A DNA stretch of 64,000 bases from Actinomadura alba. GTDB taxonomy: Bacteria > Actinomycetota > Actinomycetes > Streptosporangiales > Streptosporangiaceae. Numbering within the stretch: the stretch's first letter is position 1; each line of letters starts with the position of its first letter. Of this stretch, positions 6,234 through 28,704 are shown piece by piece. Under the pieces are notes generated by a model. That model searched no databases. It was not told where the DNA came from and was given only the letters and a program-made list of their open reading frames with translations. The translations under genes and the position numbers were made by a program. The stretch is taken from contig NZ_BAAAOK010000005.1 of the NCBI RefSeq assembly GCF_039530285.1, forward strand, positions 289,961 through 353,960. Direction: 5' to 3'.

Positions 6234-6248
6234 AAAGGTCTAACCTTT
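6234..6248. promoter_or_regulatory. 15-bp palindrome AAAGGT-CTA-ACCTTT (GGT-N3-ACC operator-like) upstream of SBP operon
   Basis: Perfect 6-bp arms seen in sequence; same GGT-N3-ACC core as other sites in the island. Confidence 0.3.
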
Positions 6249-6270
6249 GGCCCAAAGTTTTACCAGACCG

Positions 6271-7107
6271 TTATCTCGCGGACAAGAGATGGAGCGGATC
6301 TCCGGCTAGAAGGCGGGCGACGTCCGCGACGGTGATCCCGCGCATCACGTCCCGCGCCGTCTCGGCGACCGGAATGCCGAGATCGACCCGCTCGGCCATC
6401 GCCGCCGTATTGGCCAGGTCCTTCGCATGCCAGGTGAGGCGCATCCGGTCCAGCTCGCGCAGCGTCCGCGAGTCGGTCGGGCCGTCCATCAGCGCCCGCC
6501 GCAGGACGGGCACCGACACCCCGGCCCGGCGGGCGAGCTCCAGCGCCTCGGTGATCGCGCAGATCTGCGCCCAGTGGATGAGGTTGTTCGCCGTCTTGCC
6601 GACCTGACCGGCGCCGAGCGGCCCGAGATGGTGTACCGCGCTCGTCCACGGTTCGAGCACGGGACGGATCCGCTCCAGCACCGCGGCGTCACCGCCGACG
6701 AGGAGATTGACCTCGCCCGCCTCCGCCCCGCGCACCCCGCCGGTGAGGGCGGTGTCGAGCACGTGCACGCCCGGCGGTGCCGCCGCGGCCACCCGCTCGC
6801 ACGTCTCCGGGCGCACCGATGAGCAGAGCAGCACGACCGACCCCGCCCGCGCACCGCCGAGCACACCATCCGGACCGAGACACACCTCGCAGACGTCCTC
6901 GTCGGTGGGCACGAACACCGCGACCACCTCGGACCTGGCGGCCAGATCGGCGGGGTCCGACGCGTCCCGCGCGCCGTTCGCGACCGCCGCGGCGACCGCC
7001 GCCCGGTCGACGTCCAGCACCACGACGTCCACCTCGGCCGCGAGGAGGTGGCCGACCACCGGAGACCCCATCGCCCCGAGGCCGATCACTCCCACCTTTG
7101 CTCCCAT
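6271..7107 (-). CDS. NAD(P)-dependent 3-hydroxyisobutyrate dehydrogenase-family oxidoreductase
   Basis: Rossmann motif GVIGLGAMGSPVVGHLL at proposed start MGAKVGV (ATG rc at 7105-7107, AAGGGGAGAAG SD); upstream part of 361-aa ORF is compositionally junk. Confidence 0.75.
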   Translation of the reverse strand: MGAKVGVIGLGAMGSPVVGHLLAAEVDVVVLDVDRAAVAAAVANGARDASDPADLAARSEVVAVFVPTDEDVCEVCLGPDGVLGGARAGSVVLLCSSVRPETCERVAAAAPPGVHVLDTALTGGVRGAEAGEVNLLVGGDAAVLERIRPVLEPWTSAVHHLGPLGAGQVGKTANNLIHWAQICAITEALELARRAGVSVPVLRRALMDGPTDSRTLRELDRMRLTWHAKDLANTAAMAERVDLGIPVAETARDVMRGITVADVARLLAGDPLHLLSAR

Positions 7108-7235
7108 GGCTTCTCCCCTTGTCGTCGCCGTCGGCCCGGCCCGCTCGCGGGCGCCGCGGCGTATGCGTGGCGGTGCCGGTCCCGCGGAGCGATGAGAACG
7201 CCGCGCGAAGCCTGACGCACTGCCCTGTAACCGTG

Positions 7236-7250
7236 AAAGGTAATACCATT
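7236..7250. promoter_or_regulatory. Operator-like motif AAAGGTAATACCATT in divergent promoter region
   Basis: GGT-AAT-ACC inverted repeat; 11-mer GTAATACCATT recurs exactly at 28379-28389. Confidence 0.3.
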
Positions 7251-7276
7251 CCCCAAAAATGAGGAGAGGGGAACTA

Positions 7277-8554
7277 GTGCGCCGAGCCGCGGGATCCTTC
7301 ATCGTCCGCGCCCGCGCCGCCCACCGGCGTGTCTTCCGCTCCCTCGCCGTGCCCAACTACCGGCGTTTCTTCCTCGGGCACGCGGTGAGCGTCGCGGGCA
7401 CCTGGATGCAGCGGGTGGCCCAGGACTGGCTGGTTCTCGACCTGTCCGACTCGGCGGTCGCGCTGGGTCTCGCGGCCTCGCTGCAGTTCCTGCCCACCCT
7501 CGTGTTCGGGCTGTGGGGCGGCGTGCTCGTCGACCGGCTCGACCGGCGCCGTACGATCATGGCGACCCAAGCGGTCAGCGCGCTACTCGCCGCGGTGCTC
7601 GCCGCGGTGGTGCTCGGCGGCGTCGTGCGGCTCTGGATGGTCTACGCGCTCGCGCTCTGCTTGGGCCTGGTCACCGTGCTCGACGTGCCCGCCCGGCACG
7701 CCTTCGTCACCGAGATGGTGGAGCCGGAGGACTACGTCAACGCCCAGGCGCTGAACTCGAGCGTGCACAACCTGGGCCGGCTCGCCGGCCCGGCGATCGC
7801 CGGGCTGCTGATCGCGGCCGTCGATGTCGGCGCGGCGTTCGCCGTCAACGCGCTGTCCTTCGCGGCGGTCCTGCTAGGGCTGGCGCGCATGGACACCGGC
7901 CAACTACGCCGGCTGCCCGCCACCCGCCGGGCGAGAGGCCAGGTGAGACAAGGCCTGCGGTACGTCTGGCGGCACCCTGAGCTGCGTGCCTGCATGTTCC
8001 TCGTTGCGGTGGTGGCCCTCCTGGGCCAGAACTTCCGGGTCGTCCTGCCGCTGCTCGCCCGGGACACGTTCGAAGGGACGGCCGAGGTCTACGGATGGCT
8101 CACCTCCGCACTGGGCGCGGGCGCGGTGCTCGGCGCCCTGGCCAGCGCCGCGCGCGAGAACGTGACCGCGTGGTCTCTGCTGACCTGGACATGGGCCTTC
8201 GCCGCCGTCAACGCGGTCGCCGCCGTGGCCCCCGGCCTCGGCATCGCGCTGGCGGTGATGGTCGGCGTCGGCGTCGCGAACATCTGCTTCAACACCCTCG
8301 CGCGCACCCTTCTGCAACTCGGTACGGACCCCGGGATGCAGGGCCGGGTCATCGCCCTGCACAGCTTCGTCTTCCTCGGCAGCACCCCGTTCGGCGGCCC
8401 GATCACCGGCTGGGTCTGCGAGCAGTGGGGACCCAGGGCCGGGCTCCTGCTCGCCGGCGTCTCCGCCGGGCTGGCCGGGATGGTGGTGCTTCCGCACCTG
8501 CGCCGGGCGCGTCCCCGCGACAGGCCGGACGGCCGGGACGGTTCGACCGCGTGA
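7277..8554 (+). CDS. MFS transporter
   Basis: ORF 7259..8554; GTG at 7277 preceded by GAGGAGAGGGG; 12 predicted TM segments, motif LWGGVLVDRLDRRR between TM2-3. Confidence 0.8.
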   Translation: MRRAAGSFIVRARAAHRRVFRSLAVPNYRRFFLGHAVSVAGTWMQRVAQDWLVLDLSDSAVALGLAASLQFLPTLVFGLWGGVLVDRLDRRRTIMATQAVSALLAAVLAAVVLGGVVRLWMVYALALCLGLVTVLDVPARHAFVTEMVEPEDYVNAQALNSSVHNLGRLAGPAIAGLLIAAVDVGAAFAVNALSFAAVLLGLARMDTGQLRRLPATRRARGQVRQGLRYVWRHPELRACMFLVAVVALLGQNFRVVLPLLARDTFEGTAEVYGWLTSALGAGAVLGALASAARENVTAWSLLTWTWAFAAVNAVAAVAPGLGIALAVMVGVGVANICFNTLARTLLQLGTDPGMQGRVIALHSFVFLGSTPFGGPITGWVCEQWGPRAGLLLAGVSAGLAGMVVLPHLRRARPRDRPDGRDGSTA

Positions 8555-8557
8555 CCG

Positions 8558-9301
8558 TCAGTCCAGGGCGAGCCCCGACAGCCGGAGCCGGGCCACATGA
8601 TGCCGCCAGATGTTCAGGTCGTTGAACGACGATCCGAGGTCCGGCAGTTCCGCAACGTCCTCCGGGGTGAGGTCGGCCGCGCGGTCACCCAGCCGCGCCC
8701 GTTCCACGCTGACGCGGGCGAGCACGTCCAGGGTCAGCGCGCGCACGACGGCCTGCTCGACGGCGTGCGGGCCGGACCCGACCGTGGTGATCCCGTGTCC
8801 CCGCATGACGCACACCGTGGACGCCCCCATCGCCTCGACGAGTTCGCGGCCGAGTTCCGGCCGGCGTACGAGGACGGCCCGCGGGTACACGGGGACCCCT
8901 TCGAGGGCCATGCGGGCGGCGGGGATGTTGTACGCGCCGAACACCGGACGCAGCGGCACCTCCTCCACGCCCGCCACCAGGACCGCGGGTGGATGACAGT
9001 GCACGACGGCGTCGACCTCGGGACGGGCTCTCAACACCTCGCCGTGGATCGGCAGTTCGTTCGGGACGGCCCAGCCCTCGAGCTCCCCCCGTCCGTCGAG
9101 GTCGACCTGACGCACGTCCTCGTCGAAGGTGAACAGCAGCCCCTGCTCCTGCGGGCCCCGGCAGCGGACGAGCATCCGGTCCGCTCCGACCCGTACGCTC
9201 ACGTGGCCGAGGATGTCCTCGGCCAGGCCGGCGTTCGCGAGGATGCGGCAGGCCAGCGCGATGGTCCGGCGCAGGTCGGTGAACTCGGTGGGGACGGTCA
9301 C
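8558..9301 (-). CDS. class II aldolase/adducin-family protein
   Basis: In-frame with ORF 8558..9538; proposed GTG start (rc cac 9299-9301) gives MTVPTEFTDLRRTIALACRILANAGLAEDILGHVSVRV..., typical family N-terminus; upstream 80 codons look like wrong-frame GC-rich translation. Confidence 0.7.
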   Translation of the reverse strand: MTVPTEFTDLRRTIALACRILANAGLAEDILGHVSVRVGADRMLVRCRGPQEQGLLFTFDEDVRQVDLDGRGELEGWAVPNELPIHGEVLRARPEVDAVVHCHPPAVLVAGVEEVPLRPVFGAYNIPAARMALEGVPVYPRAVLVRRPELGRELVEAMGASTVCVMRGHGITTVGSGPHAVEQAVVRALTLDVLARVSVERARLGDRAADLTPEDVAELPDLGSSFNDLNIWRHHVARLRLSGLALD

Positions 9302-9310
9302 GCTGGTCTC

Positions 9311-9540: not shown

Positions 9541-9575
9541 GCGTCCTCTTTCGGGTGTCGGGGCCTGTAGGGTAA

Positions 9576-9588
9576 ATTGGTAAGACAG
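9576..9588. promoter_or_regulatory. Operator-like motif ATTGGTAAGACAG upstream of bicupin gene
   Basis: 3 mismatches to ATTGGTATGACCA consensus found at 16294 and 28689. Confidence 0.2.
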
Positions 9589-9702
9589 TTAGGCCTATGC
9601 CTAGCGTACTGTCGATCGGGCTGTCGGGTCAGAGCGGTCATCTGTGACCGGCGGAACCATCACACCGGCTGGCGCGGCGGCGCGCCGAGAAAGCGAGTGA
9701 AC

Positions 9703-11325: not shown

Positions 11326-12273
11326 TCAACCGGTCAGATCTCGAGTGCTCTCCGCGAACAGGGACTCCACGGCGGGCCGCCGGTCGAGGATGCCCTGGCT
11401 CGTCGCATGCTCGATGAGCTCCTCGATGACGGCGCGGTTCGGCGCTATGCCGTACGGCAGCGGGTCCGCACCGGTGATCTCCATGACGTGCCGGTAGATG
11501 AGATCCGTCGGTGTCGGCGCCTCGATCGCGTCGCGGCGCAGCCGGTCGACGTACAGGTTCTTGGCCTCGGCGAAGGCCTCGAACACGTCCGTGGCCAATT
11601 CGGGGTGCGCCGCGAGCAGGTCGTCCCGCACGACCACCAGGTGGTTGATGGGGTAGTGACCGCGTCGGCGCAGCGCCGCGAAGCCGGCCTCCGTGGCGTC
11701 GGGTATCAGCGGCACGAGGCCGGGAGGGCTGGGATCGACACCGATCGCGGCCGCCAGTTCGCCCCCGGCGACCAGATCGGCGAGGCGCCGTCCCGGTTGC
11801 ATCGGCACGACGTTGGCCGGTGGGCGGTACTCGGCGACGTGCTCGTCCCCGGAGAGCACCCAGGTCACCTTGCCCAAGTCGACACCGTACTCGTCCTGCA
11901 GGACGCCGCGCGCCCACACGCCGGTCGTCACGGTGTATCCGCGGTTGACCCCGACCTCCCGGCCCTCGAGATCCTTCGGATCCCGGATGCCGGCCTCCGG
12001 GCTGCGCACGATGGCGCCGTGATGGAACCCGCGCACCAGGAAGATCGGCAGTGCCGTGAACGGCTTGCCGTTGGCCTTGGCACAGAGGTAGGTCGTGATC
12101 GCCATCTCGCAGACGTCGAATTCGAGTCCTCGAACCATCCGGCGGAAGGCATCAACGAGAACCGGGACCTCCTCGAAGGCGAAGCCGAACCGTTTGGGGG
12201 TGACCGCGCCTTCCTTGAGGGCACGGTTGTTCCCCTGGGTCCGGGTCACCGTCCGCAGCCGCATGTCCGGCAT
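11326..12273 (-). CDS. 4,5-dihydroxyphthalate decarboxylase-like protein (PhtD family), paralog 1
   Basis: 315 aa; recalled family signature MRLRTVTRTQGNNRALKEG...FEEV...EFDVCEMAITTY; paralogous to 18533..19525. Confidence 0.55.
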   Translation of the reverse strand: MPDMRLRTVTRTQGNNRALKEGAVTPKRFGFAFEEVPVLVDAFRRMVRGLEFDVCEMAITTYLCAKANGKPFTALPIFLVRGFHHGAIVRSPEAGIRDPKDLEGREVGVNRGYTVTTGVWARGVLQDEYGVDLGKVTWVLSGDEHVAEYRPPANVVPMQPGRRLADLVAGGELAAAIGVDPSPPGLVPLIPDATEAGFAALRRRGHYPINHLVVVRDDLLAAHPELATDVFEAFAEAKNLYVDRLRRDAIEAPTPTDLIYRHVMEITGADPLPYGIAPNRAVIEELIEHATSQGILDRRPAVESLFAESTRDLTG

Positions 12274-12374
12274 GTTCCCTCCCGTTCGCTCGTGGCCGCC
12301 GACACGGCTCGGTCAAGAAGTTCTCGGGCGGATCCTGTCCATCGACCCGCGGTCCGCACCTTTGACAGGGTAGC

Positions 12375-12394
12375 AAACCATCAGACCATTAGAC
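12375..12394. promoter_or_regulatory. Direct repeat ACCAT-CAG-ACCAT-TAGAC upstream of GntR gene
   Basis: Seen in sequence; same ACCATnnnACCAT arrangement at 28384-28396. Confidence 0.25.
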
Positions 12395-12498
12395 TTATGG
12401 GCGGAACCCTGAAAACGGGCACCGGTACGGAAGTGGGCATCGCCTGGAAAGTGGGAGGAGCGTTATGGCACAGCCTGTACTGGCTCCGGTTACTGAGG

Positions 12499-12516
12499 GT
12501 ATTGGTTAGACCATTA
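12499..12516. promoter_or_regulatory. Operator-like site GTATTGGTTAGACCATTA (TGGT-N3-ACCA) about 60 nt upstream of GntR paralog 1
   Basis: Near-identical to 16292-16309 and 28686-28704. Confidence 0.4.
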
Positions 12517-12575
12517 CTGCTATGATGCAATGACGCAGGTACGGAGCACGACCGAGATCGCGGAGGGACGGCGGT

Positions 12576-13349
12576 ATGTCATCGGGTGGGACGCCGGGCG
12601 ACAGGAATACGGCGGACTTGTTCGGCCCGGTGAGCGTCGGTCGCATCTCTGATGTCATCGTGGCGCAGATGCAACTCCTGATAAGGGAGGGCAAGCTCGT
12701 CCCCGGCGACCGGCTGCCCAGCGAGCGCAGTCTGTGCGAGCGGTTCGGCGTCAGCAGGGTGACGATCCGCGAGGCTCTTCGGGTGCTGGAGGCCAGCGGA
12801 CTGGTGGGGATCCGCGTCGGGGCTCGGGGAGGCGCCTTCGTCACCCAGCCGTCCAGCGAACGCGTCGGGGAGAGTCTGGCCAACCTGATGACCCTGACCC
12901 CGATGACCGCCGGCGACGTCACCGAGGCCCGCATGGTCTTCGAACTCGGCATCCTGCCGCTGGTGGTGGAGCGTGCCACCGAAGAGGACATCGCGGACCT
13001 GCGGGCCCTCGTCGAGCAGGGCGTGAGCGCGCTGGAGAGCGGCTCTTACACCATGGCGATGTCGGCGGCATTCCATGTGCGGGTTGCCTCCTCCACCCAC
13101 AACCCGGCGATCGAGATGCTGGTGCACAGCTTCCACGGCCCCATGCTCATGTCGCTCCAGCAGGCCCGAGTCTCTGCGCCGTTGATGGGTCACCTGGGCG
13201 CGCAGGAACACTTCCAGCTCGTCGAGGCGATCGAGCAGCGGAACGTCGACCGGGCCCGCGCCATCATGACCCGTCACCTGCAGCGCACCGCCGCTCGCGT
13301 GGCGGAGAATCGGGATCCCAGTCTGGCGAATCTGGAGAGCGGCCACTGA
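12576..13349 (+). CDS. GntR-family transcriptional regulator (FadR/FCD subfamily), paralog 1
   Basis: 257 aa; N-terminal wHTH ...PGDRLPSERSLCERFGVSRVTIREALRVLEASGLV..., C-terminal FCD helical domain; GGAGGGA RBS. Confidence 0.85.
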   Translation: MSSGGTPGDRNTADLFGPVSVGRISDVIVAQMQLLIREGKLVPGDRLPSERSLCERFGVSRVTIREALRVLEASGLVGIRVGARGGAFVTQPSSERVGESLANLMTLTPMTAGDVTEARMVFELGILPLVVERATEEDIADLRALVEQGVSALESGSYTMAMSAAFHVRVASSTHNPAIEMLVHSFHGPMLMSLQQARVSAPLMGHLGAQEHFQLVEAIEQRNVDRARAIMTRHLQRTAARVAENRDPSLANLESGH

Positions 13350-13439
13350 GTTGCCGAGGCCGCGACAGCCACGTCGGCGTACCCCGCCAAGCCGTCGCCG
13401 ACCATGGTCGTCGATGGGTGTTCTGCGCCGTGGCCGCCG

Positions 13440-15080
13440 TTATTCGTCGGGTAGCCGGTCGTGTCGGGGGTCCTGGTTGAAGATGAGCGACTTGATCGTG
13501 ATCGGCACGGTGTTCGACGGGAAGCGTATCCGGCCGATATCGACGTAGTCGAAGTCCCGCAGGCTCAGGCCGTCGATGACCAGCAGTTCGCTGGTGACCG
13601 CGAGCTCTTCCCGGAGCAGTCTGCCGAGCGTCATGGCGACGTCCCCGTCGAGTATGACGTAGACCGGTCTGCCCTGCGCGATCCGGTCGGCGAGGCCGTC
13701 CCGGAGGCCGCACGCGAAGGGGAAGAGCCTGTCGTAGCTCGGCAGGCCATCCCATGACATGGCCAGGGCGACGTCGGCGTCGGTCTGGCCGATGTCGAGG
13801 GCGACGAGGTGGCGCCGGATCGCGGCTGCGACCGCCGCCGCGTCGACCGTCTCCCCGAGCTCGTAATTCGGCCGCACCACTTGCAGGTTGCGGCGCGGCA
13901 GCAGCGCGTCAGGGTCGGTGATACAGCCGGTGTTCCCGCTGAGCTGCACGCTGTACTCGGACGCGCCCAGCGCGGTGGCGCGGATGCACTCGCCCTCCGG
14001 CAGGAGCGGGAACGGCAGCGCGCCAGAGTCGACCCGGCGACGCAACGCCCGGCCGAGCGGCCGGCCGAGATCGCCGAACTGCCTGCTCTCCCGGTCGTAT
14101 ACGTACTCCGCGACCCCGCCCGAGAACATCACCCCGTCGATCGGGCCGACCTCCGCCAGCGGCTCGGTGAGGTACAGCCGCGCGACATCTTGGGGGAGCG
14201 GATCGGCGGTGAGCGCGGCGACGAGCGCGTCCGCCATCATCTCCGCCACCTTCTCGAGCTCCTCCGGGCGAGCGACGTCGCCGAGCTCCCAGGCGTACCC
14301 GGCGCGGGCGGCGTGACCACGGCCGGCCGGCTCGAGGCGGACGATACGGTCTTGATCGTCGACGACCTGGAGTCGGCCGCCAATGTGCACCGCGGCGGTC
14401 GTCATGACCTGACCGCGGTCCAGCACCGCGAGCTTCGTCGTCCCGCCCCCGATGTCGATGTTCAGGATGCGCAGCCCGGTGTCGTGCGACGCCTTCGCCG
14501 CGCCCGAGCCGTAGGAGGCGAGCATGGCCTCCATGTTGTGGCCCGCGGTCGCGTTGACCAACTCGCCCCCGCGCTCGGCCAGGACGCTCGCGATGGCCTC
14601 GGCGTTGCGGCGGCGCAGCGCCTCACCGGTGAGGATCACGACTCCGGTGTCGACGTCGGCAGGGTGGACGGCCGCCGCATGGTAGGCCCGGTCGATGATC
14701 GAGCCCAGAGCCTCAGCGTCGATGTGCTCGGCGCTCGCATACGGAGTGAGCGCGACCGGGGAACGGTACCCGGTCTGCCGGCGGACCACGATGTACCGGG
14801 TCGTCAGGTCCTCGCTGATCCGCCGCAGATGCAGACGGGAGAACACGACCTGCGTGCCGGACGACCCGATGTCCATCCCCACGCTGTGCAGCGTGACGTT
14901 GTCCTGCTGCCAGATCGGGTTGTCCTCGATCGGGCTCAGCGCCTCATCGTCGTGCACATGGTCGTGGTCCGGGACGTACGCCGAGTAGACCGTGGGCACT
15001 TCGGTGAGGTGCTCGAGGCCATGGCCGTCGCCATGGACGTGGTCGTGCGCACCGGCGTGCCTCACGGTCGTACTCCTCAC
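13440..15080 (-). CDS. EutA-like ASKHA-superfamily ATPase (ethanolamine ammonia-lyase reactivase family) with His/Asp-rich N-terminal extension
   Basis: Recalled E. coli EutA signatures align: LHSVGMDIGSSGTQVVFSRL, ILNIDIGGGTTKLAVLD, DYVDIGRIRFPSNTVPITIKSLIF; first ~60 aa HDHVHGDGHGLEH...PDHDHVHDDE; likely real start GTG 15065 after GAGGAG. Confidence 0.65.
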   Translation of the reverse strand: MRSTTVRHAGAHDHVHGDGHGLEHLTEVPTVYSAYVPDHDHVHDDEALSPIEDNPIWQQDNVTLHSVGMDIGSSGTQVVFSRLHLRRISEDLTTRYIVVRRQTGYRSPVALTPYASAEHIDAEALGSIIDRAYHAAAVHPADVDTGVVILTGEALRRRNAEAIASVLAERGGELVNATAGHNMEAMLASYGSGAAKASHDTGLRILNIDIGGGTTKLAVLDRGQVMTTAAVHIGGRLQVVDDQDRIVRLEPAGRGHAARAGYAWELGDVARPEELEKVAEMMADALVAALTADPLPQDVARLYLTEPLAEVGPIDGVMFSGGVAEYVYDRESRQFGDLGRPLGRALRRRVDSGALPFPLLPEGECIRATALGASEYSVQLSGNTGCITDPDALLPRRNLQVVRPNYELGETVDAAAVAAAIRRHLVALDIGQTDADVALAMSWDGLPSYDRLFPFACGLRDGLADRIAQGRPVYVILDGDVAMTLGRLLREELAVTSELLVIDGLSLRDFDYVDIGRIRFPSNTVPITIKSLIFNQDPRHDRLPDE

Positions 15081-15114
15081 GGGCGTCGGAGCCAGGCGGT
15101 GCCGGCTGTGCTGA

Positions 15115-16230
15115 CTACGGCTTGGGCGGCAGCGTCTTCAGCTCGATCGCGTACGCGTCGTCCATCTGCGGCTCTATGTCGTGCTTGGCCAGGGCCTCGC
15201 GGAAGGTCTCGCGCACGTACGGCGACTCGTCGGCGTAATCGATCTGGTCGCCGCCGACGCGCTGGCTGATCCATGCCTTCGGCACGCCCTGCGCGTTGCG
15301 GACCGATACCACCTCGTGTTTGAAGGCGAGGTAACGGGCGGGCTCGAGGCCGGTGTTGAAGTGTTGGTGGAACCACATGTTCGGGGGGACGATCAAGGTG
15401 CCGGGGCCCCACTCGTAGCGTCGCGGCTCCTCTCCCTCAGGCCACATCAGGCTGTAGCCCGTGCCCGTCAGCATGATGACGTGGGCGCCGGGGCCGTGGC
15501 GGTGTCCCTTCTTGTACGTCGCGATCGGGAACTGCGAGATGTGGCTGTTCATCGAGCCCTTGGCCATCGCGAAGCGGATGTGCCCGCCGCCCGCGCCGCG
15601 TTCCTTCGCTTCGATCAGCGGCAGGTTGGCCGCGTCGGCGACGAAGTTCGTGTCCAGGAGCAGGCCCTTCTGCTCACCCTTGGGCGAGAAGTAGCCGGGC
15701 TCGCCGTTGAAGCGGTTCGGGAAGTCCTTGGGGGTGCTGAACACGAAGTCGACGTCGTCGTAGAGGTTGATGACCGGAGGCATATTCGTCGAGGAGACGA
15801 AACGAGCCGCCTTCTGCCCTGAGCCGTTGAAGTGCTGGTGGTGGGCGTTGAGCGGGATGGCGAACAACGAGCCGGCCTGCCACTCGAATGTGACCTCGGC
15901 GCCGGCGTCGTTCCAGACCTTCGTGGACCCCTGCCCGTCGAGGACAAGGATCATCTCCTCGAACAGCTGCCGCTGCGGCGCCAGCTTGCCGCCCGCCGGG
16001 ATCTCGCAGACGTAGCAGTCGTTCGACGTGCGTGTTGCCTCGTGATTGATGAAGACGCCTCGCCCGCCGCGCCGCTCCCAGGGCTTGAGCTCGACCGTGC
16101 GCAGATCCGGCACATAGTGGGCGGCGATGATGTCCAGCCCCTCAGCGGCCACCCAACGGGTGTAGGGGGACTCCTTCTCGGTGACGAACTTCGCCGCGAG
16201 TTGGTCGTTGACGAGCGCGTCCCTGGCCAT
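15115..16230 (-). CDS. bicupin ring-cleavage dioxygenase (gentisate 1,2-dioxygenase-like), second copy
   Basis: 371 aa; two cupin halves (GVFINHEATRTSNDCYVCEIPAGG..., HRHGPGAHVIMLTGTGYSLMW...WFHQHFN). Confidence 0.65.
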   Translation of the reverse strand: MARDALVNDQLAAKFVTEKESPYTRWVAAEGLDIIAAHYVPDLRTVELKPWERRGGRGVFINHEATRTSNDCYVCEIPAGGKLAPQRQLFEEMILVLDGQGSTKVWNDAGAEVTFEWQAGSLFAIPLNAHHQHFNGSGQKAARFVSSTNMPPVINLYDDVDFVFSTPKDFPNRFNGEPGYFSPKGEQKGLLLDTNFVADAANLPLIEAKERGAGGGHIRFAMAKGSMNSHISQFPIATYKKGHRHGPGAHVIMLTGTGYSLMWPEGEEPRRYEWGPGTLIVPPNMWFHQHFNTGLEPARYLAFKHEVVSVRNAQGVPKAWISQRVGGDQIDYADESPYVRETFREALAKHDIEPQMDDAYAIELKTLPPKP

Positions 16231-16291
16231 GCAGAAGCCTTCCTGATATGCCGGACGTGACTTCCTGCCCAGATCGGGCTGGCGAAGTCAC

Positions 16292-16309
16292 GGTATTGGT
16301 ATGACCATA
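16292..16309. promoter_or_regulatory. Operator-like site GGTATTGGTATGACCATAA about 65 nt upstream of bicupin gene
   Basis: 16-mer TATTGGTATGACCATA identical to 28688-28703. Confidence 0.45.
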
Positions 16310-16371
16310 AGGCCAAAATTGCACAGGTGTCAATATCCAGGTGTCAATGCCTGCGCGACTCCGTCGCACCG

Positions 16372-17115
16372 CTAACGACCCTGGTTCGCCACCGCCTGGG
16401 CGCCCTCCGCGGCGGCTTCCGGGTCGAGGTAGCGGCCACCGCGCTCGACCGGGGTCAGATTCTCGTCGAGTTCGTAGCGCAGGGGAATACCCGTAGGGAT
16501 GTTCAGCGCCATGACCTCCTCACGGCTCAGGCCGTCGAGGTGCGCGACGAGCGCCCGCAGCGAGTTGCTGTGCGCCACGACCAGGACCGTCTGCCCGGCG
16601 AGCAGGTCGGGCGCGATGACGTCGTACCAGTAGGGCAGCAGGCGGGCGATGACGTCGGCGAGGGACTCGGTCCGCGGCATGAGGTCGCGGGTCAGCCCGG
16701 CGTATCGCGGGTCACTCGCAACCTGCCACTCGTCGTCGGGCCCGATCGGCGGCGGTGGTACGTCGTACGACCGGCGCCAGAGCTGGAACCGCTCCTCGCC
16801 GTACTCCTTCAAGGTCGCCTTCTTCTCCTTGCCCTGCAGCGCGCCGTAGTGCCGCTCGTTGAGCCGCCAGTGCCGGGTGGCCGGGATCCAGACCCGGTCG
16901 GCGGCCTCGAGCGCGAGGTTGCCGGTGCGCACCGCACGCGTCAGCAGGGAGGTGTGCACCACGGTCGGCAGCAGCCCGGCCTCACGCAGCAGTTGCCCGC
17001 CGCGCCGTGCCTGCTCCTCGCCGAACGGCGTGAGATCGACATCGACCCACCCGGTGAACAGGTTCTTCGAATTCCATTCGCTCTCGCCGTGGCGAAGGAG
17101 AATCAGCGTCTTCAT
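16372..17115 (-). CDS. gpmA: 2,3-bisphosphoglycerate-dependent phosphoglycerate mutase
   Basis: [29 protein letters not shown]... full-length GpmA signatures incl. RHGESEWN and catalytic His motif [11 protein letters not shown]. Confidence 0.9.
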
Positions 17116-17243: not shown

Positions 17244-18503
17244 ATGTTCTCGGGTTGGGAGGGATGGATGGCGTTGCGGAAGTCGGCGGTCAAGCAGGCC
17301 GGATGCGCCTCGGTCGTGCAGGTACGCCTGTTGCCCACACCGGCCGACGCCGAACGGCTGGCCACAGCCGTGACGATCTGCAACACCGCCGCCACCTATG
17401 CCTCCCGCATCGCTTGGGAACGGCGGGTGTTTGGGCAACTGGCGTTGCACCGGCTGATCTACCGGCACCTGCGAGACCATTTCGTCGGCCTGGGGGCCCA
17501 GGCGGCCGTACGGGCGATCGCCCGCGTGGCCGATGCCTACACCAACCGCCGCGCAACAAAGAAACGGGCGCATATCTTCCGGGCGCACGCCGCGGTGCCC
17601 TATGACGCCCGGATGATCACCTTCAACCGGGATGCCCGCATCGCCTCCCTCTGGACCCCCACCGGCCGCGTCCGTGCGGCCTACACCGGCCGGGACCAAG
17701 ACCTCAAGGCCATCGCCGAGCTGCCGATCGGCGAATGCGACCTTATCGAACGCAAAGGCACCTGGCTGCTGCAGATCGCCGTCGCGCTCCCCAGACCCGA
17801 GACCGCGGATCCGTTCAATGGGTTCCTCGGGGTCGATCAGGGGACGGCGAACCTTGCCGTTACCTGTGACGGCGAAGTGCTGCCCGGCAAAGCCCTCCCC
17901 GGAACGATCGAGAACAACGGTCACATCCGCGCTCTTCGCGACCGTCGGCACCGCCAGCGTAAGCGCCTGCAAGCCAAGGGCACTTCTTCGGCGCGGCGCC
18001 GGCTGCGTGTCCTGTCGGGGCGTGAGTCGCGGATGATGGCCGATATCAACCACCAAATATCCAAGCGTGTGGTGCGTGAGGCCGAACGCACCGGCCGAGG
18101 TGTTGCTATGGAAAAACTTTCCGGCATCCTCGGGCGGGTAAGGGCTCACCGGTCCCAGCGACGCACCCTGCATGGCTGGGCGTTCGCCCAGCAGATCGCC
18201 TTCACCCGGTACAAGGCCGAACGCGTCGGCATCGCCTTCATCCTGGTTGATGCGGCCTACACCAGCCAGACCTGCCCCAACTCCGATTGCGGGCATGTGT
18301 CGAGGCGGAACCGGCACGCACGCGGCATGTTCCGCTGCCAAGCCTGCGGCCTCGCTGGGCACGCAGACCACATCGCAGCCATCAACGTCGCCTACCGCGG
18401 CGCGGATGGCTGGGGCGCTGTCAACCGTCCGCACGCTACCGGTCTCCCTTCATCCAGACGGGCTCCGGAGAGCAAGCCACGGGCTTCAGCCCGTGGTCGT
18501 TGA
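17244..18503 (+). CDS. tnpB: TnpB (IS605 OrfB-family RNA-guided endonuclease / transposase accessory protein)
   Basis: 419 aa; RuvC-like GVDQGTANLAVTCDG, zinc finger CPNSDCGHVSRRNRHARGMFRCQACGLAGHADHIAAINV; probable start MALRK at 17268. Confidence 0.85.
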   Translation: MFSGWEGWMALRKSAVKQAGCASVVQVRLLPTPADAERLATAVTICNTAATYASRIAWERRVFGQLALHRLIYRHLRDHFVGLGAQAAVRAIARVADAYTNRRATKKRAHIFRAHAAVPYDARMITFNRDARIASLWTPTGRVRAAYTGRDQDLKAIAELPIGECDLIERKGTWLLQIAVALPRPETADPFNGFLGVDQGTANLAVTCDGEVLPGKALPGTIENNGHIRALRDRRHRQRKRLQAKGTSSARRRLRVLSGRESRMMADINHQISKRVVREAERTGRGVAMEKLSGILGRVRAHRSQRRTLHGWAFAQQIAFTRYKAERVGIAFILVDAAYTSQTCPNSDCGHVSRRNRHARGMFRCQACGLAGHADHIAAINVAYRGADGWGAVNRPHATGLPSSRRAPESKPRASARGR

Positions 18504-22510: not shown

Positions 22511-22542
22511 TCAGTGGACTGATGGACTGACCAATCAGCCGG
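22511..22542. promoter_or_regulatory. Repeat cluster TCAGT-GG-ACTGA / TGGACTGA x2 / CTGACCAATCAG upstream of Zn-ADH
   Basis: Tandem 8-mer TGGACTGA at 22515-22530 plus flanking inverted repeats, in 145-nt intergenic. Confidence 0.25.
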
Positions 22543-24385: not shown

Positions 24386-24402
24386 CTCGCCTTCGGCTTC
24401 CT

Positions 24403-24426
24403 CTGTCGTCGTTGGGTGGACGACAG
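24403..24426. other. Hairpin CTGTCGTC-(8 nt)-GACGACAG between unknown gene and PanB-like gene
   Basis: 8-bp stem seen in sequence, 18 nt upstream of PanB-like start. Confidence 0.2.
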
Positions 24427-24476
24427 GGCCGCGCGGGCTGGCGCCCGGCGACCCTGTCCGGCTGTCTGCTCCCGTC

Positions 24477-24992: not shown

Positions 24993-24993
24993 C

Positions 24994-26280
24994 TCAGACC
25001 GACGACTGCGGGACGCCGGGAATGGCCGTGACCGCGTCGCGGCAGGAGTCCAGGAAGGACTCGGCCTGCGGCAACACGACCGCCGCCGAGCGCACTCGGT
25101 GGTGCGCCGGGTTCACCCCTGGAGGCGTCACGCCTTCGTCCCGCAGCGCGATCGCGGCCTTGCGCAGCTTCTGGCGGGCCTTGATGATCCCGCTGTCGGC
25201 CGGGACCAGCCGCTCCTTCGTGCGGTCCACGATCGGCCCCATGCTCTCCTGGAGCGAGGCGTCCTGCATGGCGATGCCCGCCACGCCGGAGTAGGTGTCG
25301 CCGCGCTTTTGCGCCTCGCGGTCCATCAGGTAGTCGTTGTCCATGTTGGCCGCGGGCCGGTAGGTCCCCGGGATGTTCTTGCTGTGGACCCCGTGACCGT
25401 CGATCATGGCCTGGCGTTCCGCGGTCGTCAGCGGACGGACCGGATGGTAGTCGAAGGAGTACGTCCAGCAGTTCTCGTCGTCGATCGGCACCCAGAAGTG
25501 GCCGTGCACCGGGTGGTCACCGCGTGGCGGCACCATCGTGAAGGCCGGCATCACCCACGGCGTGATCCGCCAGTAGTAGCTGCCCTCCTCCGCGTTGCGG
25601 CGTGCGCCGACGAACAGCCCGCCCTCGCTGTCGGCGACCTCGAAGAACGGCTTGGTGTCCTTCATGTTGTACTCGTTGCCCTTGGCGCCCTTGAACAACG
25701 GGTCGTTCTTGAGGCCGCCGGAGTGCAGGAACGTGACGTGACTGGAGTCGATGCCGCCCTCGAACGCCTGCAGCCAATTGCACTGCTGCCACCGCTTGGA
25801 GGTGTAGGTCTGCTCCGGCGGGACGTGCGCGAACTCGAACTCCGGCAAGCCCGGCTGCTTGGCCGGGTCACCCATGTAGGTCCACAGCACGTCACCGACC
25901 CTGACCAGCGGGTACGCGGTGAGCTTCACGTTCTGGCAGAAGCTGCTGTTGTCCGCCTCCGACGGCACCTCCACGCACTGGCCGGTGACGTCGTACTTCC
26001 AGCCGTGGTAGGCGCACCGCAGACCGGACCCCTCGTTGCGGCCGAACCACAGCGAAGCGCCCCGGTGCGCACAGAACTCGTCGACCAGGCCATACCGCCC
26101 TTCGCTGTCACGGAAGGCGAGCATGCGCTCCGACAGGAGCTTCACACGCACCGGCGGCGAGTCCTTCTCCGGAAGCTCCTCGGCGAGCAGCGCGGGAATC
26201 CAGTACTGCCGGAACAAGTCGCCCATCGGCGTCCCAGGACCGGTCTGTGTCAAAAGCTCGTTGATGTCCTGCCTTAGCAC
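24994..26280 (-). CDS. Rieske non-heme iron aromatic-ring-hydroxylating oxygenase, alpha subunit (phthalate dioxygenase family)
   Basis: 428 aa; Rieske CAHRGASLWFGRNEGSGLRCAYHGWKY; mononuclear Fe His motifs; no beta subunit nearby; GTG start after AAGGGAAAC. Confidence 0.85.
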   Translation of the reverse strand: MLRQDINELLTQTGPGTPMGDLFRQYWIPALLAEELPEKDSPPVRVKLLSERMLAFRDSEGRYGLVDEFCAHRGASLWFGRNEGSGLRCAYHGWKYDVTGQCVEVPSEADNSSFCQNVKLTAYPLVRVGDVLWTYMGDPAKQPGLPEFEFAHVPPEQTYTSKRWQQCNWLQAFEGGIDSSHVTFLHSGGLKNDPLFKGAKGNEYNMKDTKPFFEVADSEGGLFVGARRNAEEGSYYWRITPWVMPAFTMVPPRGDHPVHGHFWVPIDDENCWTYSFDYHPVRPLTTAERQAMIDGHGVHSKNIPGTYRPAANMDNDYLMDREAQKRGDTYSGVAGIAMQDASLQESMGPIVDRTKERLVPADSGIIKARQKLRKAAIALRDEGVTPPGVNPAHHRVRSAAVVLPQAESFLDSCRDAVTAIPGVPQSSV

Positions 26281-26420
26281 GGCCGTTTCCCTTCAAGTGA
26301 TGGACCGTCATCGGGGTGGCGATATCGATAGGTTCGCGATGGTGGTCTGCAGTCCCACCGGGCGACCAACATGCCTCCAACTGGTGCGTCCGTGGCTGGG
26401 CATCGCGTACGGATGGGAGG

Positions 26421-26744
26421 TCAGGGCTGCTCCGGAGGGATCTCCACCGTCAGACCATCGAGGGCCTTCGTGATGCGTATCTGGCATGCGAGACGACTGG
26501 TGCTGCGCCGCTCCGAGACCGCCATGTCGAGCAGATCCTCCTCCATATCATTGGGGGGTCCGACGATTGGTGCGAACTCCTCGCTCACCCAGACGTGACA
26601 GGTAGCGCAGGAGCAGTTCCCGCCGCACTCCGCGACGATCCCGGGGACGCCGTTCTTGACCGCGGCTGCCATGACCGTGTCACCGACCGCCGCGTCGACG
26701 GCGTATTCGCGACCGGCGCTGCCGATGTAGATCACTTTGGACAA
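26421..26744 (-). CDS. [2Fe-2S] ferredoxin (adrenodoxin/putidaredoxin type)
   Basis: 107 aa; CGGNCSCATCHV ... LACQ cysteine pattern. Confidence 0.85.
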   Translation of the reverse strand: MSKVIYIGSAGREYAVDAAVGDTVMAAAVKNGVPGIVAECGGNCSCATCHVWVSEEFAPIVGPPNDMEEDLLDMAVSERRSTSRLACQIRITKALDGLTVEIPPEQP

Positions 26745-26812
26745 GATCCGCCATGTCCTCTCACGGTCGTTCCCCCCAAGTGACGGACGCGCGCTCCGGT
26801 GAAGTGTCGTCC

Positions 26813-26837
26813 TATGGTATGTCCATTAGACCAGATA
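26813..26837. promoter_or_regulatory. Composite operator-like site TGGTATGTCCA / CCATTAGACCA about 75 nt upstream of ferredoxin gene
   Basis: Each half one mismatch from TGGTATGACCA (16296) and TGGTTAGACCA (12504). Confidence 0.4.
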
Positions 26838-26968
26838 CTTGGGTGGCCGCACAAGCGACTTCTGGTCAGCGGCCGCAAAGCCGGGGCCAATCGCAACCCT
26901 CGTGGCACCGAGGTGTGTTGAGGGCATGGCGCAGGATGCGGAGGCATGGCGGCGCTTCCTGTTCGCGC

Positions 26969-28252
26969 TCACGCGTCCGCTCGCTGAACCGCCGGCGCCG
27001 CGGTGGTGGAAGCGGCGAGGAGGGACTTCAGGGGAATGGCGGCGTCGCCGGCGCGGTCCGGGGCGATGGTCACTCCCTGGCCGAGCGCCTTACGTACGGC
27101 CATGTAGTCGGCCGGGCGGTTGACGGCGTCGATGGCCAGCAGCCGGTTCTGCCGGTAGTAAAGGACCGAGAAGCGCTCGTCATCCGGCTCACCGCGCACG
27201 ACGTAGTCGTCGTAGCCGGCGGCAAGGCCGGCGATCTGCAGCTTGAGGTCACCCTGGTAGGACCAGAACCACGGCACCGATTTCACGTCGTCAAGCCGGC
27301 CGAGGAGCGTCGCGGCCGCCACTCGGGCCTGGGCCACGGCGTTCTGGACCGACTCCAGCCGTACCCTCCCCTGCCCGGTCATCGGGTGCGGCTGCACGGT
27401 GCAGTCGCCGGCGGCGACCACCGAGGGGTCGCTGGTGCGGGCGTGGGCATCGACGACGATGCCCTGGTCGCACACGAGCCCCAGCTGCTCGGCCAGCTCG
27501 GTGCGCGGGAGGACGCCGACCCCGACCAGGACCAGATCGGTCGGCAGGTGCGTGCTGTCGGAGAGTTCGACGCCGGTCACCCGGCCCCTTTCACCGTCGA
27601 AGCCGGACACGCCCGAGGACAGCCGTACGTCGATGCCGCGGCGCAGGTGCGCCTGACGGTAGAACTCCGAGACGACGGGTCCCACGGCTCGGGCCATCAG
27701 CCGCTCCGCGGCCTCGACCACCGTGACGGACCTGCCAAGAGCGCGGGCCTCCGAAGCCACCTCCAGGCCGATGAATCCGCCGCCGACGACGACGACCTTT
27801 GAGGCGGTCGCGAGCCGCGCCCGCAGGTCCGCGGCATCGTTGTGGTCGCGCAGGTAGCAGATCCCGTCAAGGTCCGCCCCGGGCAGGGCAAGCCGCCTGG
27901 GGCCGGCTCCCACGGTCAACGCCAGCCGATCGAAGGGCAGTTCGCGCCCGTTCGCTGTCGCCGCGACTCCAGAGCCCGGGGGGCCCGATGGGGACAGGCC
28001 CAACTCGCTGACCCGCTCACCGCACACCAGGTCGATCCCGGAGTCGGCATAGAAGGCGGGCGCACGAAAGGCCAGCGAGTCGAGCTCCGCCTGGCCGGCG
28101 AGGAACTCCTTGGAAAGGGGCGGCCGCTGGTAGGGCGGATGCGTCTCCTCGCCGACCAAGATGATCGGTGAGGTGTCGCCGAGCTGCCGCAGTGACACGG
28201 CCAGTTGCAGGCCGGCCTGGCTGCCGCCAACGATCAGTGTCCCGTTACTCAT
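26969..28252 (-). CDS. FAD-dependent ferredoxin--NAD(P)+ reductase (putidaredoxin reductase-like)
   Basis: 427 aa; FAD motif LIVGGSQAG, NAD motif VVVVGGGFIGLE, pyridine nucleotide-disulfide oxidoreductase architecture. Confidence 0.85.
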   Translation of the reverse strand: MSNGTLIVGGSQAGLQLAVSLRQLGDTSPIILVGEETHPPYQRPPLSKEFLAGQAELDSLAFRAPAFYADSGIDLVCGERVSELGLSPSGPPGSGVAATANGRELPFDRLALTVGAGPRRLALPGADLDGICYLRDHNDAADLRARLATASKVVVVGGGFIGLEVASEARALGRSVTVVEAAERLMARAVGPVVSEFYRQAHLRRGIDVRLSSGVSGFDGERGRVTGVELSDSTHLPTDLVLVGVGVLPRTELAEQLGLVCDQGIVVDAHARTSDPSVVAAGDCTVQPHPMTGQGRVRLESVQNAVAQARVAAATLLGRLDDVKSVPWFWSYQGDLKLQIAGLAAGYDDYVVRGEPDDERFSVLYYRQNRLLAIDAVNRPADYMAVRKALGQGVTIAPDRAGDAAIPLKSLLAASTTAAPAVQRADA

Positions 28253-28375
28253 CCCGGCCCCCGGAAGTCGGGCCGGGACGACCGCCTAAGTGGAGGCCGC
28301 CTGGCCGCCGGAGCCCGCCATGGGCAACACCGCTGGTCCCTGCGTGACATGGAAACCTCTCATCTGAGGGCTTAA

Positions 28376-28398
28376 TGTAATACCATTAAACCATCGTT
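28376..28398. promoter_or_regulatory. Operator-like AATGTAATACCATTAAACCATCG (direct repeat ACCAT-TAA-ACCAT) in divergent reductase/GntR promoter region
   Basis: Shares exact 11-mer GTAATACCATT with 7240-7250. Confidence 0.3.
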
Positions 28399-28685
28399 CG
28401 GCGAAGTGCTCCCGTCCACCACCACCCCGGGCGCGGGGTCGCCGGATGGTGAGACCCGAACCTGGCCGAGGCCGTCGACGCGGCCGCCGAGGCAGGGCTG
28501 CCGCGCGTGCGTGGTGAAGGCCCAGCGGCTGGACCTGGTGGCGGAGGCGCTGCCGCACTTCCTCTCGCCGCCGTCGTACGCCCGCGTCCGCGACGAGCAG
28601 GGTCGTCCCCGGATACGCACCCTGCTGCTCGCGCGCGAGGGCGAGACCGACGCCCGACACCTTGGGCCACCCCTGAAGGCCTAGG

Positions 28686-28704
28686 ACTATTGGTATGACC
28701 ATAC
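28686..28704. promoter_or_regulatory. Operator-like site ACTATTGGTATGACCATAC about 65 nt upstream of GntR paralog 2
   Basis: 16-mer identical to 16294-16309. Confidence 0.45.

Follow-up and report, generated by a model that had tools for sequence, protein, structure and literature searches.

Ten copies of a 17-bp AT-rich palindrome with the consensus TAATGGT-N3-ACCATTA are present in the window, the whole 64-kb stretch of DNA analysed here. All of them are intergenic and lie between 6.2 and 28.7 kb. Judging from sequence, the palindrome most likely serves as binding site for two related repressors of GntR type, which would switch about ten promoters of a catabolic cluster on and off. We consider it highly probable that these are the FadR/FCD-subfamily GntR regulators encoded in the cluster itself, gntR_A and gntR_B, and that the motif represents their operator.

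The palindromes start at positions 6233, 7235, 9575, 12375, 12500, 16294, 22520, 26812, 28372 and 28688 (each extending 16 nt further), and one half is degenerate in three of them (9575, 12375 and 28372). Scanned with a cross-species position weight matrix, the ten positions score 16.3-27.9 bits; the best score after them in the window is 11.9 bits at 41358. This last match (GAATGGGATTGCCATTC) was rejected as an operator, being located within an ORF for amidase_2, in a prophage-like segment of low GC, and having key GT/AC bases changed. The matrix is composed solely of sites from other genomes, yet it was grown from three window sites, so its shape is not independent of the window; the positional enrichment is. 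Palindromic, composition-matched, column-shuffled matrices (200-500 of them) gave 0.3 +/- 0.7 matches in the window, compared to 10 for the real matrix, by which an artefact of AT-richness was rejected. The sites are AT-rich against a genome of 68% G+C. When 5-mer dyads were counted without a seed across the intergenic DNA of the island, ATGGT-N3-ACCAT ranked first among dyads not made purely of G+C, and no dyad with 4-nt spacing recurred. The exact 16-mer TATTGGTATGACCATA occurs at 16294-16309 and 28688-28703, with 0.03 expected by chance, and its copy with three mismatches at 12500-12515; GTAATACCATT is exact at 7240-7250 and 28377-28387, and ACCATTAAACCAT is found at 28382-28394. The recurrent operator-like motif of the original prediction, which included nine of the ten intergenic sites, is thus real. 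Its quoted strings are also at the coordinates given, apart from 28379, corrected to 28377, and 28384, corrected to 28382. Distances from site centre to start codon, initially given as 60-280 nt, measure 15-287 nt.

Conservation of the motif was followed in 80 related loci of other Actinomycetota (1.46 Mb), which were gathered with the regulator as bait, so that the set is partly predisposed to show regulator and motif together. The loci contain 209 matches, compared to a mean of 7.2 for shuffled matrices. As many as 164 of the 209 are located no more than 350 nt upstream of orthologues of the cluster genes, a region representing 7.4% of the sequence, and only 4 fall into labelled coding sequence, which makes up 43.5%. 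Within these loci, the motif is thus neither equally frequent in coding sequence nor spread at random. Matches of the TGGTNNGACCAG type within the ferredoxin reductase gene of other genomes look like conserved coding sequence and were not accepted as operators. Throughout the 80 loci, the motif precedes operon-first genes only; the internal genes (PanB-like, hydrolase, amidohydrolase_2, 171-aa gene, histidine phosphatase and ABC ATPase) have no sites there. The 182 unique cross-species sites give the consensus T-A-A-T-G-G-T-[C/A]-[A/T]-[G/T]-A-C-C-A-T-T-A, with G-G-T and A-C-C present at 91-95%. In most of the 80 genomes, a regulator orthologue is preceded by a site within its own promoter, and these autoregulatory sites are kept from Streptosporangiales to Streptomyces, Micromonosporaceae, Pseudonocardiaceae and Nocardioides. 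Conservation at orthologous promoters agrees with the proposed regulon spanning the island, and conservation of own-promoter sites with the suggested autoregulation of both GntR genes.

The first putative operator, TAAAGGTCTAACCTTTG (6233..6249; 24.6 bits), is found 57 nt ahead of GTG 6184, where a decayed, internally deleted monocupin gene begins on the minus strand. This gene is the head of the SBP-SBP-permease-ATPase-MFS operon, with SBP1 287 nt from the site centre. The site had been assigned to the SBP operon; it is indeed upstream of that operon, but the gene next to it is the decayed monocupin. TAAAGGTCTAACCTTTG recurs upstream of intact monocupin or SBP1 in Nonomuraea, Planotetraspora, Acrocarpospora and others. 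The putative operator GAAAGGTAATACCATTC (7235..7251; 19.1 bits) is situated between divergent genes for a 3-hydroxyisobutyrate-dehydrogenase-like protein (start 7107, minus strand) and an MFS transporter (probable GTG 7277, plus strand, 34 nt from the site centre), and AAAAGGTAATACCATTA is present at orthologous MFS promoters in 21 of 39 loci. A weaker putative operator, AATTGGTAAGACAGTTA (9575..9591; 20.9 bits), whose right half is degenerate (ACAG), occupies the 59-nt divergon of class II aldolase (start 9538, minus strand, 45 nt from the centre) and bicupin 1 (ATG 9598 or later, plus strand, about 15 nt, the start being uncertain). Orthologues have the site in 18/22 loci for bicupin 1 and 23/39 for the aldolase. 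Upstream of the operon of a 4,5-dihydroxyphthalate-decarboxylase-like gene and RpiB (start 12273, minus strand, distance 110 nt), the putative operator AAACCATCAGACCATTA (12375..12391; 16.3 bits) combines a strong right half with a degenerate left half. It forms one of two conserved islands in a nine-genome intergenic alignment, and orthologues of the decarboxylase-like gene have a site in 27 of 28 loci.

The putative autoregulatory operator of gntR_A, TATTGGTTAGACCATTA (12500..12516), is indicated by a matrix match and by a phylogenetic footprint, in which a TAnnAT box is conserved too. Its centre is 68 nt from the start codon, a conserved -10 hexamer TATGAT (12521-12526) follows 4 nt downstream, and 16 of 17 A-type orthologues have the site. 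The putative operator of the bicupin2-EutA-like operon, TATTGGTATGACCATAA (16294..16310, minus strand, matrix match, 72 nt from the start), overlaps the -10 hexamer TATGGT (16309-16304), which is accompanied by -35 TTGACA at 16333-16328. This is the sole sigma-70-like promoter found in 12250-16400, with 10/12 consensus matches; the TTGACA-18 nt-TATGGT arrangement is kept in 11 genomes, and the site in 17/24 bicupin2 orthologues. The putative operator TGATGGACTGACCAATC (22520..22536; 19.4 bits), missed by the original prediction, precedes the minus-strand Zn-ADH operon (start 22469, 59 nt from the centre), composed of genes for Zn-ADH, RraA-like aldolase, amidohydrolase_2 and a decarboxylase-like protein. 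The operator ends 10 nt upstream of the conserved -10 hexamer TATAGT (22509-22504). It is conserved in loci L040, L026 and L035 and absent where the upstream hydrolase gene abuts; 19/31 Zn-ADH orthologues have it.

Two further sites possess an extra half-site. The putative operator CTATGGTATGTCCATTA (26812-26828, with ACCA at 26830-26833; 27.0 bits) is located upstream of the minus-strand operon of ferredoxin, Rieske oxygenase, PanB-like gene and hydrolase (start 26756, 64 nt from the centre). An identical 17-mer precedes the ferredoxin gene of Planotetraspora mira, and ferredoxin orthologues have a site in 10 of 10 loci. The putative operator TTAATGTAATACCATTA (28372-28388, with ACCA at 28390-28393; 26.0 bits) lies 128 nt upstream of ferredoxin reductase (start 28252, minus strand); the matching position in P. 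mira contains TAATGGTATTACCTAAC, and 7/14 reductase orthologues have the site. A scan of 26250-28800 for the sigma-70 consensus revealed no promoter for either ferredoxin or ferredoxin reductase. The features originally described as "composite" sites and "direct repeats" correspond to this extra half-site at +10, which is enriched across species and is a known feature of the GntR family (PMC4494728). The last site, TATTGGTATGACCATAC (28688..28704, matrix match), is the putative autoregulatory operator of gntR_B, 74 nt from its start codon. It holds a -35-like hexamer ATGACC (28695-28700), 18 nt upstream of a conserved -10 TAGAGT (28719-28724). In eight genomes CTATTGGTATGACCA is invariant and the TAnnnT box is kept; among B-type orthologues, 39 of 68 reach 12 bits or more, and most others show weaker matches.

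Both regulators are encoded on the plus strand: gntR_A at 12576..13349 (257 aa; Pfam GntR 3.8e-18, FCD 4e-22) and gntR_B at 28770..29522 (GntR 3.4e-19, FCD 1.6e-21). The conserved start of gntR_B is, according to the alignment, ATG 28770, preceded by a GGAGGA Shine-Dalgarno sequence; its ORF also opens at 28752. Each protein consists of an N-terminal GntR winged helix-turn-helix (PF00392) and an all-helical C-terminal FCD domain for effector binding and oligomerisation (PF07729), the FCD matches being full-length. Residues R35, R45, R49 and G66 of FadR are required for DNA binding (PMC2602784), and their equivalents are invariant in both regulators when aligned with E. coli FadR (a reference sequence identical to PDB 1HW1). 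The paralogues, which had been called near-identical, are 64% identical overall, the DNA-binding domains being more alike (77.5%) than the sensor domains (61%); in the helix-turn-helix and wing, 5 of 44 residues differ, all outside FadR contact positions. No other regulator genes were found in 6-29 kb.

Operators of the FadR subfamily are AT-rich palindromes with TKGT/ACMA boxes and 3 nt between GT and AC, those of the HutC subfamily typically have 4 nt there, and TGGT/ACCA boxes as such are common to several GntR subfamilies (PMC4494728). The window motif shows all the FadR-subfamily traits including the 3-nt spacing. An HutC-subfamily (DasR-like) operator was rejected on this spacing and because the regulators bear FCD, not UTRA. 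The reading as a FadR/FCD-type GntR operator, put forward originally, is accordingly supported by the GntR and FCD domains, the four contact residues, the spacing and the conservation across several actinobacterial orders.

Other explanations of the motif have to be weighed against this one. It is rather unlikely that one paralogue alone binds, or that each has its own subset of sites (for example spacer ATG for gntR_B and T/CAG for gntR_A), creating two regulons. Own-promoter spacers do differ systematically, with TGGTATGACCA in B-type and TGGT(T/C)AGACCA in A-type orthologues, and the sensor domains are just 61% identical. However, none of the five differences in the helix-turn-helix and wing affects a FadR contact, the bicupin2 site adjoining gntR_A has the "B-type" ATG spacer in both kinds of genome, and single-regulator loci (L002, L031, L019) retain the full range of site variants. 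Moreover, the ATG spacer at gntR_B doubles as the -35-like hexamer, a role that would explain its retention without any difference in specificity.

Binding of the palindrome by an unlinked transcription factor, such as a HutC/DasR-type GntR protein or a member of another family, with the FCD regulators acting elsewhere, appears very improbable. Sequence cannot give DNA-binding specificity with certainty and the boxes are shared among subfamilies (PMC4494728), but the GT-AC spacing is of FadR type and no 4-nt dyad recurs, the regulators have sites in their own promoters in most of the 80 genomes, and the island is without any other regulator gene. We give even less credit to the idea that the repeats are core promoter elements used by an alternative sigma factor, or were left behind by duplicated or mobile DNA. 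At bicupin2 the left half TATGGT acts as -10, and AT-richness within a 68% G+C genome is a trait that the sites share with promoters; yet the motif is a two-fold symmetric 17-mer, its placement varies (over -10, over -35 or between them), and its enrichment is not reproduced by shuffled matrices of matched composition. Flanking sequences of the three strong copies cannot be aligned with each other, which indicates a discrete motif, not duplicated DNA, and orthologous positions in distant genera exclude a recent duplication or mobile repeat. Segmental duplication, dispersed repeat and mobile element were rejected on these grounds.

For the two cluster-encoded regulators, the operators overlap or abut core promoter elements, covering -10 of bicupin2 and -35 of gntR_B and ending 4 nt (gntR_A) or 10 nt (Zn-ADH) before a conserved -10; this points to repression by promoter occlusion, although repression at every site is deduced from position. 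In the mechanism that we infer, comprising binding, sign of regulation, ligand and division of work between the paralogues, one regulator dimer would bind each 17-bp palindrome, with one winged helix-turn-helix per TGGT/ACCA half-site. The bound dimer, lying over or beside the -35/-10 hexamers, would block RNA polymerase. About nine transcription units would be repressed: two transporter systems, the three-component Rieske oxygenase, two bicupins, the lower-pathway operon and both regulator genes, the latter by negative autoregulation. A carboxylate metabolite, either the isophthalate-like dicarboxylic substrate of the pathway or one of its intermediates, would bind the FCD domain and release the repressor. 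As the reading heads are almost the same and the sensor domains have diverged, gntR_A and gntR_B probably share one operator set and may respond to different ligands. Activation of transcription is also known from FadR-type proteins: E. coli FadR, a sensor of acyl-CoA, both represses and activates, as it does at fabA.

Several known systems resemble the one described here. A literature search with operator strings gave LldR of Corynebacterium glutamicum (GntR/FadR subfamily, PDB 2DI3) as the only relevant return. LldR is likewise an FCD-type repressor from an actinobacterium; the core of its operator, TGGTCTGACCA, is a 17-bp pseudopalindrome that overlaps the promoter (PMC2602784), and repression is relieved by a carboxylate. 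The same core equals variants of the window motif found in related loci. Similarity to the window regulators is nevertheless distant (55.6 bits, E 6e-14), not that of an orthologue, and LldR acts at one or two sites to control lactate and fructose operons, whereas about ten operators of a catabolic island are predicted here. E. coli FadR (PDB 1HW1, 1H9T) binds TGGTN3ACCA within a 17-bp site, like the window motif (PMC2602784), its identity with the window regulators being 21-24%. The best PDB sequence matches of the regulators are NanR (6ON4) and PdhR (9JPJ) of E. coli (about 58 bits), also FCD-type repressors, with unrelated regulons (sialic acid, pyruvate dehydrogenase). NanR recognizes repeated TGGTATA-type half-sites (PMC4494728), resembling the TGGTAT half-site and the +10 direct half-site found here, but its sites are direct repeats and those of the window chiefly inverted ones. 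Orthology to LldR, PdhR, NanR, DgoR or GlcC was rejected, since the best solved relatives reach 56-59 bits and the regulated genes are unrelated.

DipR of Alcaligenes faecalis is an autoregulated GntR/FadR-type repressor of dipicolinate catabolism with six operators in a multi-operon cluster and its substrate as inducer (PMC11472048). It resembles the present case in several operators spread across a multi-operon cluster, which for DipR serves a ring dicarboxylate. It differs in its motif (GWATAC/GTATAC versus TGGT-N3-ACCA) and in its proteobacterial host (PMC11472048); membership of the window cluster in the DipR regulon was rejected on the motif. A link between dipicolinate (DipR/dip) and the cluster is speculation.

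The regulated cluster most likely encodes an uncharacterised breakdown of an aromatic acid, conserved in many soil actinomycetes. PDB searches link the Rieske protein to isophthalate dioxygenase and a 315-aa protein to 4,5-dihydroxyphthalate decarboxylase; NCBIfam gave no equivalog for any cluster enzyme, pathway-naming searches gave no assignment for the bicupins, and literature searches on isophthalate, GntR and actinobacteria found no description of the regulon. We tentatively suggest, with considerable doubt, that two paralogous FCD repressors acting on one set of about ten operators integrate two signals, for instance substrate and intermediate, in control of an orphan catabolic pathway that has been conserved in many actinobacterial orders and whose substrate would be an isophthalate-like ring dicarboxylate, for example a pyridine dicarboxylate such as spore-derived dipicolinate.

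The proposed regulatory mechanism is a textbook one and adds no new principle; the result is of value for annotation and pathway discovery. It provides a cross-validated regulon map in which two regulators are connected with ten putative operators and about nine transcription units. Gene membership is defined by the operator set, which thereby narrows the search for substrate and inducer; the set groups two uptake systems and two bicupins with a three-component oxygenase that resembles isophthalate dioxygenase, and with a lower pathway that includes RraA-type aldolase and amidohydrolase. The result also presents a natural case of two paralogous FadR-type repressors with one predicted operator set, and about 180 natural operator variants usable for specificity studies. 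Unusual enzymes of the cluster include a bicupin paired with an EutA-like ATPase, a PanB-like enzyme and two 4,5-dihydroxyphthalate-decarboxylase-like proteins.

The catabolic island, as delimited by Pfam and a gene map based on third-codon-position G+C, spans 0.7-29.5 kb of the window, whose overall G+C content is about 68-70%. Transport is represented by an ABC importer, which has two solute-binding proteins, and by two MFS transporters. The island further encodes a 3-hydroxyisobutyrate-dehydrogenase-like protein, class II aldolase, RpiB, two bicupins, an EutA-like ATPase and a histidine phosphatase. Zn-dehydrogenase, RraA-like aldolase, amidohydrolase_2 and one gene without Pfam match form a lower-pathway operon; the Rieske oxygenase operon also contains genes for a PanB-like protein and an alpha/beta hydrolase. 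A 2Fe-2S ferredoxin, a ferredoxin reductase and two GntR regulators, gntR_A (12576-13349, plus strand) and gntR_B (28770-29522, plus strand), are also present. In the window (13440-16230, minus strand) and in related loci, a bicupin gene is always followed, in the same operon, by that of an EutA-like ATPase (ethanolamine ammonia-lyase reactivase family), a pairing kept in about 24 loci.

Copies of an AT-rich motif within this island form a real, well-supported predicted operator set of FadR/FCD-type repressors. The exact 16-mer of the original prediction was confirmed at 16294 and 28688 (0.03 expected by chance), as was its near-copy at 12500. A repeated 11-mer was found at 7240, but its second copy starts at 28377, not where it had been placed; the other quoted strings lie within 2 nt of their reported positions. 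A scan of the window with a symmetrised matrix derived from three strong sites gave eleven first ranks that were all intergenic. With a second matrix, built only from sites of other genomes, ten 17-bp sites (starting at 6233, 7235, 9575, 12375, 12500, 16294, 22520, 26812, 28372 and 28688) score 16.3-27.9 bits and all other positions at most 11.9 bits. Nine had been predicted; the tenth, 22520-22536, is new and precedes the Zn-dehydrogenase operon by 59 nt. Palindromic matrices of equal composition, made by shuffling columns, produced 0.3 +/- 0.7 matches in the window, compared with 10 for the real one. In an unseeded count, ATGGT-N3-ACCAT ranked above all other dyads except those of pure G+C. 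Alignment of the flanks of strong motif copies revealed no similarity.

Scanning one genome per species yielded 150 relatives of the regulators, and the best 80 of 150 (63-81% identical; 1.46 Mb of loci together) were used. These 80 come from Acrocarpospora, Planotetraspora, Nonomuraea, Actinoallomurus, Actinophytocola, Kibdelosporangium, Micromonospora, Phytohabitans, Actinoplanes, Streptomyces, Nocardioides, Blastococcus and many MAGs, the closest loci, with 92-98% protein identity, being those of Actinoallomurus MAGs, a genus to which the window DNA would accordingly probably belong. Genes for the same enzymes and transporters accompany the regulator in shuffled order, and TATTGGT-N3-ACCAT is the best match upstream of nearly all regulator orthologues. 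The 1.46 Mb contain 209 matrix matches of at least 12 bits (mean of 7.2 for shuffled matrices), 164 of them in the 350 nt preceding a cluster orthologue, in sequence making up 7.4% of the total. Equal frequency in coding sequence would speak against operators; labelled coding sequence, 43.5% of the total, holds 4 of the 209. Most of 41 unassigned matches precede other cluster-associated genes, encoding monocupin or thioredoxin-reductase-like ferredoxin reductase. Sites stand before the first genes of operons, and none was found upstream of internal operon genes in the 80 loci. A site precedes the decarboxylase-like gene in 27 of 28 loci, gntR_A in 16/17, ferredoxin in 10/10, bicupin1 in 18/22, bicupin2 in 17/24, aldolase in 23/39, MFS in 21/39, Zn-dehydrogenase in 19/31 and the first solute-binding protein gene in 14/34. 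Each gene has its own conserved site sequence, AAAGGTAATACCATT for MFS and AAAGGTCTAACC for the transporter operon, and the Planotetraspora mira ferredoxin site is identical to that of the window.

Eleven loci (L045, L046, L051, L064, L066, L069 and L072-L076; Micromonosporaceae and some Pseudonocardiaceae) carry a strong operator 13-26 nt upstream of a gene for thioredoxin-reductase-like ferredoxin-NADP reductase, located just downstream of the regulator gene at about 10.8-11.9 kb of each locus. This enzyme seems to stand in there for the window's ferredoxin reductase, which is of the glutathione-reductase type.

Both regulators possess GntR and FCD domains. Described originally as near-identical, they in fact have an overall identity of 64%, with 77.5% for the DNA-binding domain and 61% for the sensor domain. 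FadR residues R35, R45, R49 and G66, which reportedly are essential to DNA binding and also occur in LldR (PMC2602784), are invariant in both when aligned with the verified FadR sequence. The best solved relatives, NanR, PdhR and LldR (56-59 bits), are by sequence family members rather than orthologues. The typical FadR-subfamily operator, according to a comparative study of 634 factors, is an A/T-rich palindrome with TKGT/ACMA boxes spaced by 3 nt (PMC4494728). The consensus of 182 unique sites, TAATGGT-[C/A][A/T][G/T]-ACCATTA, fits this description and supports the assignment of TGGT-N3-ACCA to this type; the LldR operator TGGTCTGACCA has the same core.

Phylogenetic footprints locate the operators on core promoter elements. 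In the bicupin2 promoter, a conserved TTGACA is followed after 18 nt by TATGGT, the left half of the operator; an independent consensus scan of 12250-16400 found this promoter and no other. Within the invariant gntR_B operator is a -35-like ATGACC, followed after 18 nt by a conserved TAnnnT box (TAGAGT, 28719-28724), and the gntR_A and Zn-dehydrogenase operators end 4 and 10 nt, respectively, upstream of conserved -10 boxes. Such geometry argues for repression by occlusion: bound repressor would block the promoter and both regulator genes would be under negative autoregulation. Because FCD domains usually sense carboxylates (PMC4494728), the inducer is likely an acid of the pathway. This proposed mechanism is of a conventional kind, here predicted for undescribed regulators and an orphan pathway.

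The two paralogues could also divide operator specificity into two regulons, as the spacers of their own-promoter sites differ (ATG for gntR_B, T/CAG for gntR_A). However, their DNA-reading heads are nearly alike, the ATG spacer serves also as a -35 element, and all site variants persist in genomes whose locus has one regulator only. Clusters with two or three paralogues also occur in several other genomes (L007/L041, L012/L080, L039, L066, L067, L077). With modest confidence, we favour paralogues that share one operator set and respond to different ligands.

The composite site and the ACCATnnnACCAT repeats of the original prediction are present, and both are explained by an extra half-site. 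Of 408 oriented flanks across species, 75 have an ACC(A) beginning at +10 relative to the operator centre, versus 1-13 at other offsets; in the window it occupies 26830-26833 and 28390-28393. For GntR-family operators, further weak half-sites at a distance of 7-12 nt from the centre have been documented (PMC4494728).

Two target assignments needed refinement. The site in the dehydrogenase/MFS divergon exists, but since the dehydrogenase starts at ATG 7107 and MFS probably at GTG 7277, site 7235 is proximal to MFS. The 6233 site leads into the solute-binding protein operon as proposed, but its immediate target is GTG 6184, 57 nt downstream, which starts an internally deleted monocupin gene (5955-6270, minus strand) with an AGGAGG Shine-Dalgarno sequence. 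This remnant retains 22 N-terminal codons and, in another frame, C-terminal HGDSGSVVEPVRNPN; its intact operator and ribosome-binding site now lead into the transporter operon, which in other genomes is headed by an intact monocupin gene with the same operator. An unusually long spacer (499 nt) separates gntR_B from the ferredoxin reductase gene and contains a stretch (28406-28684) with coding-like third-position G+C bias and without Pfam match. It may be a gene remnant from the rearrangement that moved gntR_B off the aldolase gene, which its orthologue adjoins in most genomes.

The Rieske protein (24994-26280, minus strand) is a close relative of the Comamonas testosteroni isophthalate dioxygenase (PDB 9INA; E 1e-135, 456 bits). 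It retains R234 and H257, the two anchors for carboxylates, as well as G172, and carries substitutions T175S, I246V, I294V, F249R and F333I, which together suggest a ring with 1,3-dicarboxylate geometry other than isophthalate itself as substrate. Whereas the Comamonas enzyme is two-component, the window oxygenase has a separate ferredoxin and a glutathione-reductase-type reductase. A 315-aa protein matches 4,5-dihydroxyphthalate decarboxylase (E 1e-34); no enzyme of the island reached NCBIfam equivalog level. A known dipicolinate-catabolism cluster is controlled by DipR, likewise a FadR-type repressor, but its operator is GWATAC (PMC11472048), in contrast to TAATGGT-N3-ACCATTA.

A TnpB-like ORF of 419 aa (17244-18503, plus strand; Cas12f1-like TNB domain, 2.5e-19; OrfB_IS605, 9.7e-7, slightly below the Pfam cut-off) lies antisense in the middle of a catabolic operon, between the histidine phosphatase and decarboxylase-like genes, a gap of only some 30-90 nt in the closest relatives. 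A G+C-rich hairpin, CCACGGGCTTCAGCCCGTGG, marks its 3' end, and no TnpA is found nearby. In a single ORF at 31229-32773 (minus strand), an SPFH/Band 7 domain and a Ser/Thr protein kinase domain are fused; it adjoins a gene for a histidine kinase (29792-31225), near which no response regulator was seen. The sole off-island motif match, 41358, is inside an N-acetylmuramoyl-L-alanine amidase gene (41293-42033). This gene and one for recombination endonuclease VII (40734-41303) belong to a segment of lower G+C (0.63-0.65; 40100-44850), probably a prophage or mobile-element remnant.
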